Source: a virus | Virus record (IMG/VR): IMGVR_UViG_3300045988_030341 | Span: 1 to 32,023 of that record | DNA: 32,023 bases | Strand: one strand, 5' to 3' | In this document: in pieces, positions 2,757 through 32,023 of the stretch | How the letters are laid out: the number at the start of each line of letters is the position of its first letter | How positions within the stretch are numbered: position 1 is the first letter of the stretch | The notes under the pieces: generated by a model | What the model saw: the letters and a program-made list of their open reading frames with translations, nothing else | Told to the model about the DNA's origin: nothing | Databases searched by the model: none | Position numbers and translations under genes: made by a program

Positions 2757-5195
2757 ATGGATTTACGAAAAATGACTTTTAAAATTGCTACGGCGAGCAG
2801 CGCGAAGTCTACTTCATGGAAAAACCGCTCCTGCTCATGGGACGAGTTAGTCGAGAAGCTGGCAAGGGCGGTCGTTACGGATGAGACGTACCACGAGTTC
2901 ATAAGCGCGAGCAAAGCCGAGCAGGGTACAATCAAAGACGTAGGCGCATTCATGGGCGGCGAATTGTTCGGCAGCCGTAGAAACAAAAACAATGTAGGCG
3001 AGCGCTCTATTTTGGCGCTTGACATTGACTATGGGGAGAAGAATTTCCCCGAAATGTTCTACTCTGTCATTAATTGTGCATGTGTCATTCACGGAACGCA
3101 CAAGCACAACCCGAAAGCCGATACGCTCCGGTACCGCGTAATAATCCCGTTATCCGAGCCGGTGGACGGGGAGCAATACGAAGCTATCGCCCGAAAGGTC
3201 GCCGAGCTGACGGGTATCGACTTGTACGACCGCACCACCTTTCAACCCGAACGCTGCATGTTCTTTCCGTCGGTTTCCAAAGACGTAGAGTATGAGTTTA
3301 TAGATTACTCGGCATTCAACGAAAACCCTTTGGACGTTCAAAAGTATTTAGGTATGTACGACGATTGGAGCGATACGACCGAATGGGCATACCACAAGGA
3401 CGAGAAGGGAGAGGCCCGGACGCTCGCTAAAGAGCAACAAGACCCCACACTGAAAGAGGGTAATGTAGGCGACTTCTGCAGAGCCTACACCATCAGCGAG
3501 GCTATCGCGGAATACCTGTCGGACGTTTACAAACCTACCGGACGGGAAGATAGATGGACCTATACAGGCGGTTCTACTTCGGGCGGCATGATTACCTTCA
3601 ATGATATGTTTGCCTATTCATTCCATAACAACGACCCGATACAAGGTAACCACGTGTTTAACGCCTACGACCTGGTACGTGTACACAAGTTCGGAAAGAC
3701 GGACAAGGGCTCGGATAGAAAGAACTCCACCGAGGCTATGAACGAACTTGTAAACAAGGACCCGAAGGTAGCCGCGGCACGTGCCCGGATGCTGGCGGTC
3801 AAGGCCGGCGAGATAATGGACGATTTCGACGACGTTATAGAGGTAGAGGAGGCAACGGATGCCGATGCAGTGACAACGTACGAGGACGCAATGGCAAAAC
3901 TTGAAACGGATAAGCGCGGCGCGTATCTGCCATCTGCAAAGAATTTAGGTCTGATCATGAAGTATGACCCCAATTTAAAGGGGCTCATCGCCCGCGACCT
4001 GTTTAAAGAGCGCCGTGTTGTTACACGTGTCCCTCTATGGCGCGCAAAGGATAGTTCTTCGGACTTCCAGGATGTGGACTACTCGGGCGTACGTAAACAC
4101 ATTGAAGACGTTTACGGTATATCGAATAGTGTAAAGATTGACGATGCCATAGCGCTATCCGCCGAGATGAACTCATTCCACCCGGTGCAGGAATACCTGA
4201 CAAAATTAAAGTGGGACGGTATCGAAAGAGTCGACAAGGCTTTGATTCACATCATGGGTGCCGAGGATAACATATACACCCGAGAAGCATTCCGAATCAT
4301 GATGGTAGGAGCTGTCAAGCGTATCTTTCAAAAGGGCTGCAAGTTTGACAGCATGTTAGTGTTACAGTCCGAGCAGGGCGCGGGAAAAAGCACATTCATC
4401 CGAAAGCTGGGCAAGCAATGGTTCTCTGACAGCCTTTCGAGCATGGACGGTAAGGGAGCGTTTGAACAGTTGCAGGGTAACTGGATATTGGAGGTTGCCG
4501 AGTTGTCAGCAATGAGACGTTCGGAAGTAGAGGGTGTGAAAAACTTCATCTCCAAAACAGAAGACAGCTACAGACCGGCGTACGGACGTGTTACGAAGAA
4601 CTTTCCCCGGCAATGTATATTTATAGGTACGACAAACAGGGACGAATTCCTGAAAGACGATACGGGTGGCAGACGGTTTTTGCCCGTGAAGGTTAAGGCA
4701 AACGCCAACACGCATCTTATCTTTGAGAAGGGGTTCGACGAATATGTAGACCAGTTATGGGCGGAGGCAGTCCAGATGTATTTCCGCAAAGTAAGTACGT
4801 TGTTATCCCGTGAAGCCGAAGCAATAGCCGAGAGAGGACGCGAGGAACATTTTGAAGCAGACCCCCGTACCGCATCAGTAGAGGCGTATTTGAATATGCT
4901 CGTTCCGTCAGATTGGCGGCGCATGTTTTTGAATGAGCGACGCATGTACTTCAGGGAGTACGACGCTTCAAAGATAGACCCGGAAGATTTTACACTGGAA
5001 AAGATGGGCTTCGTGTCTACCATGCAAATCGCTACGGATGTGTTCGGGATGGAGGCAGGGCGCGTAACCGCCAAAGAGAGCAGGGAAATAGCTGCCATCA
5101 TGTCCAAGGTACCGGGGTGGAAACGTTCGGCAGATGCCAAGTCAGTTATGGGTCTCGGACGCGTACGAGGATATGAACGTATTGTTGACAAGTGA
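2757..5195 (+). CDS. Primase-polymerase / P-loop helicase fusion (VirE/D5-like)
   Basis: 812 aa. The N-terminal part has a DxD-type ILALDIDYG and HGTHKH, which is prim-pol-like. The C-terminal part has Walker A GAGKST (LVLQSEQGAGKSTFIRKLG) and a Walker B-like WILEVAEL. Confidence 0.85.
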   Translation: MDLRKMTFKIATASSAKSTSWKNRSCSWDELVEKLARAVVTDETYHEFISASKAEQGTIKDVGAFMGGELFGSRRNKNNVGERSILALDIDYGEKNFPEMFYSVINCACVIHGTHKHNPKADTLRYRVIIPLSEPVDGEQYEAIARKVAELTGIDLYDRTTFQPERCMFFPSVSKDVEYEFIDYSAFNENPLDVQKYLGMYDDWSDTTEWAYHKDEKGEARTLAKEQQDPTLKEGNVGDFCRAYTISEAIAEYLSDVYKPTGREDRWTYTGGSTSGGMITFNDMFAYSFHNNDPIQGNHVFNAYDLVRVHKFGKTDKGSDRKNSTEAMNELVNKDPKVAAARARMLAVKAGEIMDDFDDVIEVEEATDADAVTTYEDAMAKLETDKRGAYLPSAKNLGLIMKYDPNLKGLIARDLFKERRVVTRVPLWRAKDSSSDFQDVDYSGVRKHIEDVYGISNSVKIDDAIALSAEMNSFHPVQEYLTKLKWDGIERVDKALIHIMGAEDNIYTREAFRIMMVGAVKRIFQKGCKFDSMLVLQSEQGAGKSTFIRKLGKQWFSDSLSSMDGKGAFEQLQGNWILEVAELSAMRRSEVEGVKNFISKTEDSYRPAYGRVTKNFPRQCIFIGTTNRDEFLKDDTGGRRFLPVKVKANANTHLIFEKGFDEYVDQLWAEAVQMYFRKVSTLLSREAEAIAERGREEHFEADPRTASVEAYLNMLVPSDWRRMFLNERRMYFREYDASKIDPEDFTLEKMGFVSTMQIATDVFGMEAGRVTAKESREIAAIMSKVPGWKRSADAKSVMGLGRVRGYERIVDK

Positions 5196-5290
5196 TAACA
5201 GAGGGGTGTAAAAACCCCGAATGTTAACTGACTGTTAACAGAATAACTGAATGGGATTTATTTCTTAAATGGTGCTAACGTAATATACAG

Positions 5291-5330
5291 CCTGTCGTTA
5301 TTTGCCGTATATTTGTAATGTCAAAAGGAA
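5291..5330 (+). promoter_or_regulatory. Promoter cassette E1, copy 1 (-7 box TATATTTG at 5308-5315)
   Basis: CCTGTCGTTATTTGCCGTATATTTGTAATGTCAAAAGGAA is about 85% identical to 28024..28063 and contains a perfect TAnnTTTG. Confidence 0.6.
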
Positions 5331-5358
5331 ATAATAACAATTTAAAAAACTAAAGATT

Positions 5359-6177: not shown

Positions 6178-6913
6178 AAACGTACAGAGTTACAATGTAG
6201 GAAAGTCCGGTTACGCAAAACACGCCATACAGCCGTGGGACATTTGGAAAGAGTATAACCTCAACCACTGGGACGCGGATATAGTGAAACGCGTGCTACG
6301 CGGCAAGGAAGGCGAGGCGCGGACGCTTGACTACGAAAAGATTATCCGCATTTGCAAATACCGCATTTCGGAGCTTTCAAAGGAAACCAAGGCAGTCGCA
6401 CCAGCCGAGGCGGAAAAGCCCGTAGAGGACGAGGAAAGCGATGATACAACGGTGTTCTGCTTGGACGAGACAATGAAGCCGGCAATGTTCTATGCCGAGG
6501 GCGAAAAGTGGAACGGTAATTATGTCGGTTACTCGGTGTTCATGGATGTTAACACCCCCTATATGTATCTGGGTGTCGACGCAGGGGGATGCCACTTGTA
6601 CGCAACCCTTTCGACGCGAGGGCGTTGGTATTCTGCCTCGGAAACGCACCTGCCGCCCGGGACGTTCAAGCTAAAATATACCAGCCTTTCAGGCAGCCAC
6701 AGAAGATCGCTAAAGATAGGGTACGTAGGTACGCTCTACGGGAAGCACGATTATATCATAACGGGCAACGGGTATTTGCTCCGCTACTTTGGAACGAAAG
6801 GCGGCAAGTTTTCATACCGTGATATGTCGGCAAAACGTGCGGATGGTACGTACCCCGAGTTCTTAAGCAAGGTCAAGTTAGAAAACAAGGCGATTCAATT
6901 CACGTTACGATAA
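6164..6913 (+). CDS. Hypothetical protein; N-terminus resembles the DUF3310 family
   Basis: 249 aa. YAKHAIQPWDIWKEYNLNHWDADIVKRVLRGKEG looks like the DUF3310 pattern as I remember it. The C-terminal two thirds are unrecognised. Confidence 0.7.
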   Translation: MSASENVQSYNVGKSGYAKHAIQPWDIWKEYNLNHWDADIVKRVLRGKEGEARTLDYEKIIRICKYRISELSKETKAVAPAEAEKPVEDEESDDTTVFCLDETMKPAMFYAEGEKWNGNYVGYSVFMDVNTPYMYLGVDAGGCHLYATLSTRGRWYSASETHLPPGTFKLKYTSLSGSHRRSLKIGYVGTLYGKHDYIITGNGYLLRYFGTKGGKFSYRDMSAKRADGTYPEFLSKVKLENKAIQFTLR

Positions 6914-7072: not shown

Positions 7073-7684
7073 ATGAAGGAAATAATAAGTGAAAAGGACT
7101 TGGAGCGCACGTTTAGCGAGAGCCTGAACAGAACAAAAAAGGTGTGGGTAATAAAACTATTGTCCACCTTTGTAAAGGGATTGCCCGACAGAATGGTAAT
7201 TTGCCAGGGCGGGTACGTAGGCTTTGCCGAGATAAAGACCACGGGCAGGAAACCAACCAAGATACAAACGCATATCCACGAGAAGTTAAGGGCACTCGGC
7301 TTCAAGGTATTTGTTATCGACGACTTGGAAAGCAGGGACATTGCGGTGAGTTTCTTCTTGGGAAACGTTAAGAAAACAGACAGCGTACCGAGAAAAGGGT
7401 TATCTCTGTATCATTCGATTAAAAAAAAAAAAACAGAAATCATGAAAAAGAGAAGTTTAAAAGAAGAAATCGAATACCGTTCAGGTATGTACTTTGGAAT
7501 CGGGTCCGGCGCGCCGTATGTCCGTGATGACAAGTTCGGTAATACCGAGGAAATTCCAAACCGGTTGCAACGCGATATTACCCGTGATGTCAATTTCCTT
7601 TCGCGTAAAACGCCGGGTTACGTATCGGATGAACAGGATTTCAAAAGCATTCGCGTATTCTATAAAACAAAATTAATGAAGTAA
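7073..7684 (+). CDS. VRR-NUC nuclease, read through an A13 tract into a second ORF as sequenced
   Basis: VRR-NUC signature GLPDRMVICQGGYVGFAEIKTTGRKPTKIQ. I prefer the ATG at 7073 over the TTG at 7055. There is no stop before 7684 only because the A-run at 7421-7433 has 13 residues. Confidence 0.8.
   Translation: MKEIISEKDLERTFSESLNRTKKVWVIKLLSTFVKGLPDRMVICQGGYVGFAEIKTTGRKPTKIQTHIHEKLRALGFKVFVIDDLESRDIAVSFFLGNVKKTDSVPRKGLSLYHSIKKKKTEIMKKRSLKEEIEYRSGMYFGIGSGAPYVRDDKFGNTEEIPNRLQRDITRDVNFLSRKTPGYVSDEQDFKSIRVFYKTKLMK
7421..7433 (+). repeat. A13 homopolymer inside the coding sequence
   Basis: 13 consecutive A, counted directly. It encodes KKKK plus the first base of a Thr codon. Confidence 0.95.
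7442..7684 (+). CDS. Possible independent 80-aa ORF downstream of VRR-NUC
   Basis: The ATG at 7442 is preceded by the A-rich leader and followed by AAAAAG, as at other starts in this genome. With one A fewer, the upstream gene would stop at TGA 7443-7445 in an ATGA overlap. Confidence 0.4.
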   Translation: MKKRSLKEEIEYRSGMYFGIGSGAPYVRDDKFGNTEEIPNRLQRDITRDVNFLSRKTPGYVSDEQDFKSIRVFYKTKLMK

Positions 7685-9465: not shown

Positions 9466-9741
9466 ATGGAAAAGTATTCAAAAGCAGTCAGTGGGATGTA
9501 CTCACAGTCTGGAAAGGGAGAAGCCCGCCCGTCGGAAAAGTACACAGGACGGTCAGCTTACGGATGCGGTGAGAAATCGGAAGTGGCAGGATACCGGAAA
9601 GATACGGACGAAACATGGGCGCTGATAGCAGACGGCACTAAAATCAAGAGTTGGTGCAGGGGGCGGACAGACAACCAGTGCGTGGTATTTAAAAATTGTG
9701 AATGTTATTATTTCGTTGGTATTGGCGATCTGACAAATTAG
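9466..9741 (+). CDS. Hypothetical Cys-rich protein (91 aa)
   Basis: First ORF after cassette E2a. The C-terminal Cys cluster is SWCRGRTDNQCVVFKNCECYYF. Confidence 0.65.
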   Translation: MEKYSKAVSGMYSQSGKGEARPSEKYTGRSAYGCGEKSEVAGYRKDTDETWALIADGTKIKSWCRGRTDNQCVVFKNCECYYFVGIGDLTN

Positions 9742-11071: not shown

Positions 11072-11117
11072 AAAAGCCCAAATCTGATTACAAAATGTCA
11101 GATTTGGGCTTTTGTTT
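11072..11117 (+). terminator. Intrinsic terminator closing the early block
   Basis: Perfect 16-bp stem: AAAAGCCCAAATCTGA (11072-11087) pairs with TCAGATTTGGGCTTTT (11098-11113). The loop is 10 nt and the tail is T-rich (TTTTGTTT). Confidence 0.85.
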
Positions 11118-11155
11118 ATAAACAGAAAAAAGGGCCTCAAAAATTAACAGAATTT

Positions 11156-11360
11156 AACCACAGTTACACAGTAAAAAATCGCTACTGTGTCGTTTTTTGT
11201 ACACTCTAACTCCTTATATTATAATATATTATATGTAATTACACAGATACACAGATAAAAAGGGGTTAGAGCATTATTTTGGAAAGAAGTGTATTTTGGA
11301 GGGTGCAAAATATACTATTTTCTATATTAAAGTTAAGAAAAAAAGGTCTGTGTCTGTGTA
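11156..11360 (+). repeat. Structured intergenic element, copy A (40-nt invariant core 11239..11278)
   Basis: Aligns block-by-block with 27704..27920. Blocks are AACCACAGTTACACAG; an 8-bp hairpin 11166-11173/11183-11190 followed by T6; an AT-rich spacer; the core TTACACAGATACACAGATAAAAAGGGGTTAGAGCATTATT; and the inverted partner GTCTGTGTCTGTGTA at 11346-11360. Confidence 0.85.
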
Positions 11361-11495
11361 AGTGCTTGTAACGTTCAGTGAGATAGGTAGTTAACGTGTT
11401 TTCGCCCAAAACCATGTAAACATAATTCATTTGTAAACTTTATTTGTAAGAAAAGGCCTAACTGCCCGTAGGTTGGTCTGGTACGATTTGTTGCC

Positions 11496-11503
11496 TACCT
11501 TTG
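11496..11503 (+). promoter_or_regulatory. Candidate late promoter -7 box TACCTTTG
   Basis: Perfect TAnnTTTG. A gTTG lies 20 nt upstream as a near -33 element, about 125 nt before the terminase small subunit ATG. Confidence 0.5.
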
Positions 11504-11629
11504 TGCCATGATTGAAAATAACCAAAGCAGTTGATACGAACTGCGGGGTATCGTCCGAATACTGCCCGCGCATCTCTTTAAGAGACCGTGAACGCACACA
11601 TGCGATACCCTTAATACCGACTAACAACT

Positions 11630-12256
11630 ATGGCAGGGAGAGCAAAGAAGGAAGCCGCCCCGGATACGAAAGCGGCGATTATCAAGGGACAGGCGACGGG
11701 CAAAGCCCCAGCCCCCAAAGACGATCTGAAGAAATGCAAGGAACTTTATGAGGTCGTGCAGACGCGCGGCTGCAAAGGCGCTACGTTGTCTACCGTCGAG
11801 GAGTGCGTGGATTACGTAGCGGAGTATATGGACTTCTGCAGGCAGAACCCGTTCATCACGTATGAAGTCCTGAAGGGTGGAAACGCGGCCGGTCAAAAAG
11901 TACCCGTAGAGAAGAAACGCGCGCCGTCGCTTGGCGGCTTCTGCCTTTTCATCGGGTGGACTTTGCAAGCGTTCAAGAAGAACGGCGCACGGCTTGAAAA
12001 GCTGGCGGACGACGGGAACGAAGACGCGGCCAGCCTGTTGACCGGGTACGCCCTTATCGCCGAACTGATCGCGACCGATATGGACGAAAGCGCGCTTGCC
12101 GGTGTGGTTGACGCCAACTACATGGCGAAGCTCAGAGGACTGCGGGACCTTAAGGACGTTACAAGCAATGGCAAGGAGGCGGGCACGAAGGCCATGCAGG
12201 TTAACGTACTGTCCGAGGACGCGGTGAAGAACCTGCAGAAGCTGGGAGGCATTTAG
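11630..12256 (+). CDS. terS: Terminase small subunit (putative)
   Basis: Lies directly upstream of terL. It has a basic N-terminus, and KRAPSLGGFCLFIGWTLQAFKK resembles the conserved helix-turn-helix segment of gp3-type small terminases as I recall it. Confidence 0.6.
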   Translation: MAGRAKKEAAPDTKAAIIKGQATGKAPAPKDDLKKCKELYEVVQTRGCKGATLSTVEECVDYVAEYMDFCRQNPFITYEVLKGGNAAGQKVPVEKKRAPSLGGFCLFIGWTLQAFKKNGARLEKLADDGNEDAASLLTGYALIAELIATDMDESALAGVVDANYMAKLRGLRDLKDVTSNGKEAGTKAMQVNVLSEDAVKNLQKLGGI

Positions 12257-26064: not shown

Positions 26065-26582
26065 TAGAACAATTGGAGACCTATTTCCGCACATTTTTTG
26101 CTGTTACCGTTCTGGCAGTAGTTACGGATATACGGGACTTTATATTTTTAGTGGTTATCGTTACCGCGTTGAACTGGCTGGCAGGCTATTTGGCAGACAG
26201 GGCGAAAGGAAAGCCCTACAGGCACGAAAAGACCATGCAGGCGGTCAAGGAGTTGTTTTTAACCACTGCGATTCTATTCTTTGTAGCCCTGACGTGTGAC
26301 ATGCTGGGGCCTGTGATAGATTACAAGCTTTTAGTAAAGGTGCTCACGGGTATGTTCCTTATTATATACGCGCGTAACATAACAGGAAACCTTAGGGTAG
26401 TGCAGCCGGGAAATGACTTTGTGAAGGTGTTAAACAGCATAGCAAATAGCAAGTATTTCCAACTTGAGAAAAAGATTAAGGATGGCGAACTTGATACACC
26501 CTTGGAAGAAAAGGAGAAAGAAGATGGCGGACTTGATATACCCTTAGAAGAAAAGGAGAAAGAAGATGGCGAACAGCAGTGA
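26061..26582 (+). CDS. Holin-like membrane protein
   Basis: Four hydrophobic segments (FFAVTVLAVV, FIFLVVIVTALNWLAGYL, LFLTTAILFFVALTC, LLVKVLTGMFLIIYA) and a charged repetitive C-terminus. It lies directly upstream of the endolysin. The start is GTG, overlapping the previous stop as GTGA. Confidence 0.6.
   Translation: MIEQLETYFRTFFAVTVLAVVTDIRDFIFLVVIVTALNWLAGYLADRAKGKPYRHEKTMQAVKELFLTTAILFFVALTCDMLGPVIDYKLLVKVLTGMFLIIYARNITGNLRVVQPGNDFVKVLNSIANSKYFQLEKKIKDGELDTPLEEKEKEDGGLDIPLEEKEKEDGEQQ
26481..26574 (+). repeat. 42-bp tandem repeat, about 2.2 copies
   Basis: GATGGCGAACTTGATACACCCTTGGAAGAAAAGGAGAAAGAA (26481-26522) repeats at 26523-26564 with 3 mismatches. A third partial copy, GATGGCGAAC, contains the endolysin ATG at 26566. 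Confidence 0.95.
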
Positions 26583-27081
26583 ATTGGTACCGTTCATCCT
26601 GCAGTGGGAGGGCGGTTTCGTTAATGACCCCGACGACTCGGGGGGCGCGACAAACAAAGGTATCACTATAGGCACATTCGCCGAATACAAGAAGCGGAAG
26701 GGGCAAAAAGCCCCTACCGTCGACGACTTGAAAAACATATCGGACGCCGAATGGCACGATGTTTTCAAGTCTTTGTATTGGGACAGGTGGAAAGCCGACG
26801 AAATCAAAAGCCAGCCGGTAGCAAATATCTTGGTCGATTGGGTCTGGGCTTCCGGTTCGCACGGTATAAAGCGCCCGCAACGTCTTTTAGGCGTCAAGGC
26901 GGACGGTATTGTAGGCAAACAGACCATTGCAGCCGTTAACGCTATGGACGCGGCTACGCTCTTTAAAATGATTAAAGACGACAGGGCAAAGTTCATAGAC
27001 GAGATATGCAAGGCGAGACCCAGAAACGAGAAATACCGCAAGGGGTGGATGAACCGTATTAATGCGATACGCTATGAATAA
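26566..27081 (+). CDS. Endolysin, GH108-type lysozyme with a C-terminal peptidoglycan-binding domain
   Basis: ILQWEGGFVNDPDDSGGATNKGIT is the GH108 N-terminal signature. LGVKADGIVGKQTIAAVNAMD matches PG_binding_3-type domains. Confidence 0.85.
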   Translation: MANSSELVPFILQWEGGFVNDPDDSGGATNKGITIGTFAEYKKRKGQKAPTVDDLKNISDAEWHDVFKSLYWDRWKADEIKSQPVANILVDWVWASGSHGIKRPQRLLGVKADGIVGKQTIAAVNAMDAATLFKMIKDDRAKFIDEICKARPRNEKYRKGWMNRINAIRYE

Positions 27082-27652
27082 ACTGCAAAAGATAATTACA
27101 GGCTTTGCAGTCCTTATGGTGCTGTTTGGTGCCATAACCAAGATGGCGGACACCATAAGGAAGCAAAGAGCCGAAATAGGACGTTTAGAACGTAACGTTG
27201 AGGCGGTGAACGACGCGCAGACAGAGTACAGAACAAAGCTCGGAGATGCGGCAGCGAAGTGTAAGGCTTTAGAGATGTCGCACAAGGAGCTGAAGAAAAC
27301 GAACGCAGACCTATACAAAGAGGTGGACGCGCTTAACGTCCGAGTGAAAGATGCGTTATCCGCAACCCGTACCGTTACCAAGACAGTAATAAAGGAGGTT
27401 GTGCGTACCGATACGGTAGCCGGCGAGTTGATAGCGGAATACCGGGACGCATGGAACACGATACAGGCAAGGGTTAGGCAAGACAGTACGGAATTAAACT
27501 ACCAAGGCAGGGACACGATAACGGGTGTTATCACGGTCCGGAAGAAAAGATTCTTGTTTTTCAGATGGGGGGTCAAGGCTATAGAGCACGACATATCGAA
27601 CAAAAACCCCAAAACAAAGACAGATATAGACATAGCGGTGAGGCTGAAATAA
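27062..27652 (+). CDS. Spanin-like / lysis accessory protein
   Basis: N-terminal TM helix (IITGFAVLMVLFGAI) followed by a coiled-coil region. It is the last gene of the lysis cassette and overlaps the endolysin end. ATG 27074 is an alternative start. Confidence 0.45.
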   Translation: MRYAMNKLQKIITGFAVLMVLFGAITKMADTIRKQRAEIGRLERNVEAVNDAQTEYRTKLGDAAAKCKALEMSHKELKKTNADLYKEVDALNVRVKDALSATRTVTKTVIKEVVRTDTVAGELIAEYRDAWNTIQARVRQDSTELNYQGRDTITGVITVRKKRFLFFRWGVKAIEHDISNKNPKTKTDIDIAVRLK

Positions 27653-27703
27653 TCAGGGAATGGAGGGCTGTTAACAGTTCTTCATTTTTCGTTTACATTC
27701 GTT

Positions 27704-27920
27704 AACCACAGCTTACACAGATAAAAAGTGAGTCTGTGTAGGTCTCTGTGTAAAATAACCATCTCTATATTAGCTACTTATCTCTATTTACACAGATACA
27801 CAGATAAAAAGGGGTTAGAGCATTATTCTGGGGAAAATAGCATTTACCACTACGAAACGGACTGTAAAAACCACAATATTCGAAATGGAAGTATATGAAA
27901 ACATGTGTGTGTCTGTGTAC
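27704..27920 (+). repeat. Structured intergenic element, copy B (40-nt invariant core 27788..27827)
   Basis: Same block order as 11156..11360: AACCACAGCTTACACAG; an 8-bp hairpin 27714-27721/27733-27740; an AT-rich spacer; the identical 40-nt core; and an inverted partner within TGTGTGTGTCTGTGTA (27904-27919). Confidence 0.85.
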
Positions 27921-28023
27921 GTGTAAAATAAAACACTGATAAATAACACTTTAGCTCACATCGACTGTTTCTTTACATCTTTTCACTTTTGATTAATATT
28001 TATTAGCACAAAAAGAGATACAA

Positions 28024-28063
28024 CCTGTTAGTATTTGCCGTATATTTGCGATGTCAGAAGGAG
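28024..28063 (+). promoter_or_regulatory. Promoter cassette E1, copy 2 (-7 box TATATTTG at 28041-28048); candidate early promoter
   Basis: CCTGTTAGTATTTGCCGTATATTTGCGATGTCAGAAGGAG is about 85% identical to 5291..5330. It is the first promoter-like sequence after the late block. Confidence 0.6.
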
Positions 28064-28080
28064 ACAGGAAAAAGAACTAT

Positions 28081-31442: not shown

Positions 31443-32023
31443 ATGGGGAAATACGATTCATACGTAAACGCGGAAGGTGTCAGAATTTCAAAGGTAACGG
31501 GAAAACCGTTGAAAAAGTATAATAAGGTCAACAAGGCATACTGGGCAGCTCGTGAAGGCAAAGCATTGGCAGGGGTACAGCAACCTATAGTTGAGGCAGA
31601 CCCCTTGATAGAGGAGCTTAAAAGCTATTACAACGAAGAAGAATTAAAGGGTATTATCAGTTTGAAGAAGGACGCGCCGCCCGTCGAACTGGTACGCATC
31701 GCACCGAAGAAAAAGACATCGCCCGACGAGGGAAACACTGGTTTTCTTATTGCATCAGACTGGCACGCCGACGAAGTAGTAAAAGCTTCTACAGTATTGG
31801 GCAAAAACGAGTATAACAAAGATATCGCGGAAAAGCGTATCACTAATTTCTTTGCAAATGCCGCCTATATGATTAAGAAAAAGCCGGTAGATAACTTGGT
31901 TATCGGTTTAATCGGCGATTTGACAGGCGGATATATCCACCCCGAACTCGGGCAAACAAACAGCATGTCCCCGATGCGCGGAATAAGCTTCGTCAAGAAC
32001 CTGATTATTTCCGGGCTTAAGTA
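31443..32023 (+). CDS. Calcineurin-like metallophosphoesterase, N-terminal part (continues at 2..619; 366 aa in total)
   Basis: ATG at 31443 with no stop before the window end. Motif I is SDWHAD (DxH) and motif II is GDLTGG. The last 99 nt are the terminal repeat. Confidence 0.85.
   Translation, partial: MGKYDSYVNAEGVRISKVTGKPLKKYNKVNKAYWAAREGKALAGVQQPIVEADPLIEELKSYYNEEELKGIISLKKDAPPVELVRIAPKKKTSPDEGNTGFLIASDWHADEVVKASTVLGKNEYNKDIAEKRITNFFANAAYMIKKKPVDNLVIGLIGDLTGGYIHPELGQTNSMSPMRGISFVKNLIISGLK
31925..32023. repeat. Terminal direct repeat, right copy (identical to 1..99)
   Basis: Direct comparison with bases 1-99 shows no mismatch. Confidence 0.95.

Follow-up and report, generated by a model that had tools for sequence, protein, structure and literature searches.

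Twin iteron arrays at the early–late boundaries of a Bacteroides siphophage genome: probable Rep-bound replication origins rather than folded RNA

Introduction

The element at positions 27704–27920 of the viral DNA analysed here (IMG/VR record IMGVR_UViG_3300045988_030341, 32,023 nucleotides, the whole of which is called the window) contains short inverted repeats, and it raises the question of whether these are the arms of a folded RNA or the sites of a DNA-binding protein. An initial annotation, made from the letters alone, described the element as copy B of a pair whose copy A lies at about 11155–11365, and offered either an RNA fold or a protein-bound palindromic array as its explanation. 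Here, we report a computational follow-up in which copies A and B are best read, with a probability of roughly 0.7, as arrays of iterons that are bound by the phage protein Rep and act as replication origins, and not as folded RNA. What was computed is the repeat anatomy, the conservation of the twin arrangement, the concerted change of the repeat motif, the match of Rep to SaPI1 Rep1 and the tracking of motif class by a winged-helix domain; from these we infer binding, melting, origin firing and a division of labour between the copies. Our literature search found no description of origins or initiator–iteron pairs for this phage family.

As assembled, the window closes into a circular phage genome of 31,924 bp. 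Bases 1–99 recur without a difference at 31925–32023, a terminal direct repeat of 99 nt produced by overlap in the assembly of a genome that is circular or circularly permuted; genes and distances therefore wrap around the window ends. In megablast searches, 13 isolated Bacteroides uniformis/xylanisolvens siphophages match at about 86% identity across most of the genome, including C2_18_80S2P, EMB1/2, BU730P1, BU183P1/2, BU241P1/2, BU1-1, BU2-1/2, BU3-1 and BX788P2.

Repeat anatomy of the two arrays

The heptamer TACACAG occurs 12 times in the window when both strands are counted, against 2.37 expected, and none of 100 shuffles reaches that number. Ten of the 12 fall within 11165–11360 and 27714–27919. 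Each array consists of six or seven short iterons with, in this genome, the heptamer TACACAG and its 5-nt core CACAG: array B holds six exact copies, and array A holds four exact copies and two with one mismatch. On the 31.9-kb circle the arrays have the same orientation and are separated by 16.5 kb one way and 15.4 kb the other; each stands in a gap that a terminator-like hairpin precedes and a promoter-like box follows. The features of array B are as follows.

27656–27689, + strand: terminator-like hairpin and T-run (15-pair stem, then CGTTTACATT), following directly on the last late gene, with array B just downstream
27713–27721: TTACACAGA, the 5' arm of the first hairpin in the initial annotation
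27714–27720, + strand: iteron B1, TACACAG, left arm of an inverted pair
27733–27740: TCTGTGTA, the first partner proposed for that arm
27734–27740, − strand: iteron B2, CTGTGTA as read on the + strand
27746–27753: CTGTGTAA, the second partner proposed for that arm
27746–27752, − strand: iteron B3, CTGTGTA as read on the + strand, the 'alternative partner' of the RNA model
27753–27788: AT-rich spacer (A/T 27/36) between oppositely oriented iterons, candidate DNA-unwinding element
27789–27803, + strand: tandem iterons B4 (27789–27795) and B5 (27797–27803), TACACAG A TACACAG, period 8
27804–27835: conserved non-iteron core ATAAAAAGGGGTTAGAGCATTATTCTGG, constant between copies and between phages with differing iterons
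27905–27919, − strand: distal inverted iterons, a degenerate GTGTGTGT and then an exact CTGTGTA at 27913–27919
28041–28048, + strand: TATATTTG, early promoter-like box, about 120 nt past array B

Array A is built from the same parts.

11072–11113, + strand: perfect 16-bp hairpin followed by TTTTGTTTAT, a terminator-like structure that ends the early block, with array A just downstream
11165–11191: inverted iteron pair, TACACAG at 11165–11171 (+ strand) and CTGTGTC at 11185–11191 (− strand, one mismatch)
11214–11239: AT-rich segment (A/T 25/26, 21 nt of pure A/T), candidate DNA-unwinding element
11240–11286, + strand: tandem iterons at 11240–11246 and 11248–11254, with the conserved core
11348–11360, − strand: distal inverted iterons, CTGTGTC at 11348–11354 and CTGTGTA at 11354–11360
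11496–11503, + strand: TACCTTTG, candidate Bacteroides-type −7 box of the late (terS) operon, about 135 nt past array A

The consensus of the Bacteroides −7 box is TAnnTTTG. The two copies align across about 230 nt and contain an identical 40-nt core (11240–11279 and 27789–27828). Both start with an inverted heptamer pair separated by a 13-nt spacer, a third inverted heptamer and an AT-rich stretch, and both end with two tandem heptamers of period 8, the core ATAAAAAGGGGTTAGAGCATTATT, some 60–100 variable nt and two inverted heptamers. The core at 27804–27835 could serve as a priming or host-factor site.

Much of the descriptive part of the initial annotation is borne out. Its strings and coordinates for copy B are all correct, the 27653–28080 gap does lie between the last late gene (DUF6549, ending at 27652) and the first early promoter-like box, and the two elements are homologous, stand at both early/late boundaries upstream of the next promoter-like box, and keep their repeats and core while their spacers vary. 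Three details needed correction, one of which, the predicted fold of copy B, is taken up below with the RNA model. The third heptamer, from which an alternative hairpin peculiar to copy B had been drawn, is also carried by copy A of relatives and is merely degenerate in copy A of the window. The 'loop' enclosed by the long-range stem had been called unrelated between the copies; its first 30–45 nt are the best conserved part of the element.

In most relatives the spacer of array B is the same TATTATAATATATTATATGTAA stretch as in copy A. In several relatives (L003, L006, L007 and L008) copy B has a left half that barely differs from their own copy A; the window, C2_18_80S2P and EMB1 carry a divergent variant of this half. 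When copy A of the window is compared with copy B of BU241P1, identity is 86%, but it is only 77% with the window's own copy B. These two observations suggest gene conversion between the copies.

Concerted change of the iteron word

Relatives were collected as 138 IMG/VR loci fetched via the last late gene and terS, and 68 further loci fetched via rep. Both intergenic regions are matched by all 13 isolates, and both copies are present in 8/8 fetched isolate genomes and in most metagenomic relatives that show both regions. The outcome that would have spoken against the elements, homologous phages with only one copy or none, was thus not obtained, and even distant clades keep two arrays.

Within a genome the heptamer is uniform across both arrays, and between genomes it differs, with iteron B1 varying in concert with every other copy across relatives; this holds over the 13 isolates and upwards of 100 metagenomic relatives. 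The following classes were found.

TGCACAG: most contigs
TACACAG: the window and about nine others
TGACCAG: BU183P1 and two contigs
GACACAG: four contigs
TGGCCAG: one contig
GGCACAG: a clade with 77% TerS identity, with 9–10 copies in array A and 4–6 in array B

The GGCACAG clade has the related core GGTATAACACTTTATTTGG. TACACAG and TGCACAG differ only at a weakly constrained flank position, and both co-occur within single arrays. Where a contig shows both arrays, the top word of A is the top word of B in 36 cases out of 41, and most exceptions are technical. In distant clades, with Rep identities of 58–72%, two arrays flank rep at distances of about 7.5 kb on the upstream side and 6.5 kb on the downstream side and carry clade-specific words, namely TGTCACA (5 + 7 copies) and TGTAACA. 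In a third clade, one contig has an A array with CGGAACA seven times and TCCGACA four times, and a near-identical contig has a B array with TCCGACA six times; since the two arrays stand in separate contigs, the twin layout of this clade is pieced together across them. A clade with 41% Rep identity may carry TAAACAA.

In the TGACCAG class, the right arm of the first inverted pair carries a different word, CGCCCAG in five of six arrays and CGACCAG in the sixth, and the distal site of BU183P1 contains related words. An array may accordingly contain two kinds of site, or sites graded in affinity.

The manner in which the words change distinguishes the two explanations that had been offered. When 47 distinct copy-B sequences are aligned, 90–96% of the pairs in the proposed stems are canonical and the stems show double-sided changes, as a folded RNA would. 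However, copies in the same orientation, which are unable to pair, are 91–92% identical and undergo the same co-changes (AA<->GG and AA<->CC). Because direct copies co-change as strongly as inverted ones, the constraint is the same word everywhere and not base pairing, which is the signature of a trans-acting reader. Of the original pair of explanations, the protein-bound array is therefore the one favoured here, and the RNA fold is not supported. For scans made from sequence only, this is a warning: concerted change in inverted protein-binding repeats mimics RNA covariation.

Rep as the candidate initiator

The candidate reader is encoded in the early block.

2757–5195, + strand: Rep, an 812-aa VapE-like primase-helicase and candidate initiator, with the VapE-like ATPase domain at residues 481–698
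4899–5192, + strand: predicted winged-helix domain of Rep, residues 715–812, fast-evolving, with variants that track the iteron class

Pfam PF05272 matches Rep at residues 481–698 (E = 5.6e-80), and PHROG primase and helicase families match its two halves. The best PDB sequence match is 7pds_A, the SaPI1 Rep1–DNA complex (E = 1.9e-79, residues 392–731). An AlphaFold2 model of the last 172 residues has a predicted local distance difference test score of about 90 over residues 701–810 and shows a helix–helix–helix plus beta-hairpin layout. Its only confident Foldseek matches are six 7PDS chains (E = 1.4e-5, probability 1.0, about 160–170 columns), below which come weak matches to winged-helix DNA-binding domains.

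All proteins of the window and of BU183P1 were scanned against contigs grouped by motif class, and Rep alone perfectly separates the TGACCAG class, which marks the single clear switch of specificity used in this screen. The contigs of this class are not simply clonal, since their other genes are mosaic. Six of the seven TGACCAG-specific Rep substitutions lie at or beyond residue 677 (677, 721, 724, 756, 767 and 794), five of them within 715–812, and the predicted wing (residues 789–798) also differs between classes.

TACACAG phages: KRSADAKSVM
Most TGCACAG phages: QRAANGKTVA
TGACCAG phages: QRAAGRRAVM
TGGCCAG phage: QRSAGRKAVT

M756T and a G-R-[RK] wing are common to the two CCAG-type classes only. 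Residues 715–812 diverge 3–4.7 times faster than the remainder of Rep, and their identity is 0.81–0.85 in pairs of different class and 0.90 in pairs of the same class, the rest of Rep being equal (0.955–0.965). In deeper clades with other words, the recognition-helix and wing sequences differ too. Judged from these sequence correlations and the predicted model, the iterons would most likely be read by the C-terminal winged-helix domain of Rep.

Two other proteins were considered as readers. The small terminase TerS was rejected, as it is invariant across motif classes (94–98% identical in every one), and so was a hypervariable 91-aa early protein (9466–9741), which is not grouped by motif class. 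Pfam and PHROG scans of ten early proteins yielded no DNA-binding candidates. The 91-aa protein has no family match and is only 36–49% identical to its counterparts in all isolates, amid genomes that are otherwise 86–95% identical; other TACACAG-class contigs have versions just 45–47% identical to that of the window. It could be a host-interaction or anti-defence gene.

Relation to known replication systems

The Reps of staphylococcal pathogenicity islands (SaPIs) are initiators and self-loading helicases whose C-terminal winged helix recognizes iterons of 5–6 nt, and the SaPI ori has 6–12 iterons and a central AT-rich region with at least two iterons per side in opposite directions (PMC9371898). 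Rep of the window is homologous to the VapE-like initiators of SaPIs and related phage-inducible chromosomal islands (Rep1 and PriRep5; PDB 7PDS and 7OLA), its C-terminal model matching 7PDS, and like PriRep5 it is fused to a primase-type N-terminal half. The arrays share with the SaPI ori the 5–7 nt iterons (6–7 per array, within the SaPI range), the AT-rich centre and the opposed orientation, with array B reading + − − / AT-rich / + + and array A + − (degenerate third) / AT-rich / + +. In both systems the cognate initiator-helicase, here with a predicted C-terminal winged helix, is encoded by the element itself and the specificity varies between relatives. Nevertheless, there are distinguishable differences. 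The arrays belong to a virulent Bacteroides siphophage and not to a Gram-positive satellite island, number two where a SaPI has one, and lie 6–7 kb from rep on either side. Each also contains a conserved core and, some 105–115 nt away, an inverted pair of distal iterons.

The dual arrangement has its closest parallel in phage SPP1, whose two similar origins oriL and oriR, made of repeats and an AT-rich DNA-unwinding element, lie about 13 kb apart and are both bound by gp38 (PMC6316719, PMC3485210). One of them occupies an intergenic segment bracketed by transcription signals, and fork stalling at gp38-bound oriR has been proposed to trigger the switch from theta to concatemeric replication (PMC6316719). 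Both SPP1 and the present phage are pac/headful siphophages with two similar repeat and AT-rich sequences some 13–16 kb apart on a circular map, which gp38 binds in SPP1 and Rep would bind here, and both have an intergenic copy flanked by transcription signals. SPP1 differs in that oriL is located within gene 38, and in that gp38 is a separate origin-binding protein that acts with the loader gp39 and the DnaB-type helicase gp40. The replication module of the window consists of the VapE-like primase-helicase, PolA, DUF2800, an Enc34-type single-stranded-DNA-binding protein and SNF2; neither a loader nor a DnaB-type helicase was seen among the proteins scanned, which did not include every open reading frame. 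A sequence relationship to the SPP1 origins is not expected.

A third comparison is offered by the alpha protein of satellite phage P4, a multifunctional primase-helicase with a Toprim-type primase and a C-terminal winged helix that binds origin repeats (PMC4234260). No P4 structure was among the sequence matches in the PDB searches. Replication of P4 depends on ori and crr, cis elements that lie apart and both carry the same iteron; crr lies 4.5 kb from ori and consists of two 120-bp direct repeats. Taken together, the arrays most likely combine the initiator and iteron logic of SaPIs with a dual arrangement like that of SPP1, in siphophages of gut Bacteroides.

Proposed mechanism and its weak points

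In the proposed mechanism, Rep produced from early transcripts would bind the iterons and assemble on both sides of the AT-rich segment, melt it, and then load itself as the replicative helicase. The N-terminal domain of Rep would prime, and the phage PolA (735–2753) would extend the primer. Either both arrays would fire, or only one would, and its twin would have an auxiliary function or arrest forks, the role proposed for oriR of SPP1. Headful packaging requires concatemers, and arrested forks could promote the change to concatemeric replication. Two functional origins are the simplest model because neither array lacks any of the parts. A single origin with an auxiliary or barrier site fits equally well for a headful-packaging phage that needs concatemers.

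Several observations weigh against reading the arrays as Rep-bound origins. Both lie at a distance from rep, about 6 kb downstream and 7 kb upstream, and not directly downstream of it as in SaPIs, and there is no heptamer cluster just after rep (5196–5358). GC and cumulative skew show no inflection and no origin signal in the window; the skew is positive throughout because a single strand carries all genes. On the protein side, the winged-helix model was built on a shallow alignment of 11 sequences, as a word-indexed protein search with the C-terminal domain gave ten matches, mostly fragments. The motif-tracking scan covered just the families present in the window or BU183P1, and the association of class with winged-helix identity (label permutation p ~5e-4) carries no correction for phylogeny. 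No residue of Rep was found to be strictly specific to the TACACAG or the TGCACAG class, and independent switches of specificity are few, with essentially two in the close clade (CACAG versus CCAG, and flank changes). Finally, IMGVR_UViG_3300029708_000027 is discordant, with TGTACAG five times in array A (L098) and TGCACAG five times in array B (L041). It is the only clear A/B discordance, and it implies that variation at position 3 of the word is tolerated by the Rep allele of that phage.

The placement of the arrays in gaps may protect the assembly from transcription or couple replication to the early/late switch, which is speculative. An explicit form of such coupling, in which Rep sits at both boundaries, fires one array, arrests forks at or loops to the other, and gates read-through or the late promoter, has a low but appreciable chance of being right. 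If so, one protein–DNA code would time replication, transcription and packaging in an abundant family of gut Bacteroides phages.

Confirmation of the arrays as Rep-bound origins would provide the first defined origins and initiator–iteron pairs for widespread virulent gut siphophages of Bacteroides/Phocaeicola. The series of iteron words (CACAG-type, CCAG-type and GGCACAG, with TGTCACA and TGTAACA in distant relatives) is matched to small changes in a winged-helix domain of about 100 aa. It would therefore form a ready system for studying a recognition code and the co-evolution of initiator and origin amid recombination elsewhere. Possible uses include origin cassettes for Bacteroides phagemids or vectors and origin decoys that give 'Per'-type phage resistance, and the iteron/winged-helix class might mark replication incompatibility among co-infecting gut phages.

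Alternative readings of the arrays

The arrays could be operators for a phage transcription regulator, either Rep as a repressor or activator or another early protein, that set the early-to-late switch, insulate the blocks and have no origin function. Their position between a terminator-like hairpin and a promoter-like box, some 120–135 nt upstream of the TAnnTTTG boxes, suits this proposal, and concerted motif change fits any sequence-specific DNA-binding protein. Yet the ends of the arrays are more than 100 nt from the promoter boxes, and the motif class is tracked by no small early protein, the hypervariable 91-aa one included. An AT-rich centre flanked by opposed iterons, in a genome with a cognate initiator-helicase whose winged helix tracks the word, is the anatomy of an origin. 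We thus consider operators without origin function decidedly unlikely, although a dual role as origin and operator is conceivable.

Copy A might instead be the pac site of the small terminase, with copy B a decayed or secondary copy. It lies about 270 nt upstream of terS (11630–12256), a common place for pac or cos sites. Among the relatives, EMB1 and EMB2 have been reported to be circularly permuted and EMB2 to use headful (pac) packaging (PMC9584325), which lends the proposal some plausibility and indicates that the arrays are not cos ends. The near-invariant TerS does not track the motif, however, and the site is not unique: a second, equally conserved copy in the same orientation is retained 16 kb away in every clade. 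Moreover, the anatomy fits origins rather than terminase sites. This makes a pac function of the arrays very improbable; a pac site may lie within the conserved leader at 11370–11629.

The RNA model of the initial annotation holds that the copies are cis-acting structured RNAs that, in the manner of attenuators or antiterminators, control transcripts running from one block into the next. Stable stems are indeed predicted, namely hairpin 1 and a long-range stem of 14–15 bp, the predicted fold of copy A has z = −3.0 against shuffles, and the stem changes described above are double-sided. Copy B, in contrast, is not better folded than shuffled sequence (z = −1.49). Rfam searches returned no relevant match at the gathering threshold or at E <= 1, just a weak match to a microRNA on the terminator hairpin and a weak match to a small nucleolar RNA. 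The sequence context, with each array between a terminator-like hairpin and the next promoter-like box, argues against the arrays being transcribed. TAnnTTTG is absent from both copies on either strand, the next boxes being those at 11496 and 28041, and the full Bacteroides promoter pattern (TTTG, 17–23 nt, TAnnTTTG) has two matches in the window, neither near the arrays; a sigma-70 promoter scan is not appropriate for Bacteroides.

The pattern of change is no more favourable to a fold. All of the 'helices' share one word and switch together to the same new word. Hairpin 1 of the TGACCAG class keeps an internal A–G mismatch (TGACCAG versus CTGGGCG) in five of six arrays, the sixth having CTGGTCG, and copy number and arrangement vary freely between clades, as in the 9–10 copies of the GGCACAG clade. 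The attenuator-like choice between hairpins proposed for copy B consequently finds no support, given the hairpins upstream, the missing promoter box, the Rfam result and co-change that is not pair-specific. HK022 putL and putR, two related structured RNAs in one genome that are each tied to a transcription unit, are the closest known counterpart of this model. The put RNAs are transcribed just downstream of promoters, whereas the present arrays come after terminator-like hairpins and before promoter-like boxes, and they covary at non-pairing positions as well. We give a structured RNA slightly less credence still than a pac site.

Least credible of all is a functionless duplicated intergenic repeat, selfish or neutral (similar to a miniature inverted-repeat transposable element, or left over from recombination), as the signs of gene conversion between copies (the left halves of copy B, and the BU241P1 comparison) are set against a position, orientation and internal order conserved down to 58–72% Rep identity with clade-specific words, the lack of further copies elsewhere in the genome, and one word maintained at every site within a genome.

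Gene blocks and other repeats in the window

The + strand holds all plausible genes. The early block runs from about 28082 across the junction to 10993 and encodes DUF2800, an Enc34-type single-stranded-DNA-binding protein, PolA, the VapE-like primase-helicase, VRR-NUC-type nucleases and an SNF2 helicase. The late block begins with terS, continues with terL, tail genes and a GH108 endolysin, and ends with the DUF6549 protein (27062–27652). A tRNA search found none.

The palindrome CTGTTAACAG occurs at 5231–5240 just after rep, at 6545–6554 in an early gene and at 27667–27676, where it is contained in the 27656–27689 hairpin before array B. GTTAACA is enriched (15 hits versus 5.5 expected). Relatives (e.g. 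L164, 12426–12479) have four to six copies right behind the stop codon of rep. A role as another operator, or as an accessory site for Rep, is conceivable.

Two families of promoter-like blocks are repeated in the window. The first comprises 5285–5340 and 28018–28073 (...TATTTGCCGTATATTTG...), which are 79% identical and the second of which contains the 28041 box. The other family, GTTATATTTG...TTTAAAAAC, lies upstream of several early genes and one late gene. Repeated blocks are also found at 7394, 9425, 14450, 28231 and 30386. They are probably Bacteroides-type promoters with a shared leader.

Some features are peculiar to copy B. It has a direct repeat, ACCACTA at 27846–27852 and ACCACAA at 27870–27876, where relatives carry ACCACTAT twice; these repeats sit in a conserved stretch, CATTTACCACTAT...AAAAACCACTATAT, that is absent from copy A, and they may bind a different factor. 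An open reading frame of 56 aa within copy B (27728–27898) was rejected as coding because single-base indels occur among relatives across that stretch. A resemblance of TTAACCACA at the left edge to a DnaA box was dropped, since relatives do not conserve this stretch.

Between array A and terS lies a variable-number repeat with the 17-nt unit GTCCGAATACCGGGATA. One relative (L086, 9630–9928) has it expanded in the terS leader to a tandem run of 17.6 copies, related units number about six in two others (L080 and L101), and the window has a single copy at about 11553. A further tandem duplication, in frame and of 42 nt (2.2 copies, 92% match), occupies 26481–26574 within the gene that is annotated as a holin in relatives.

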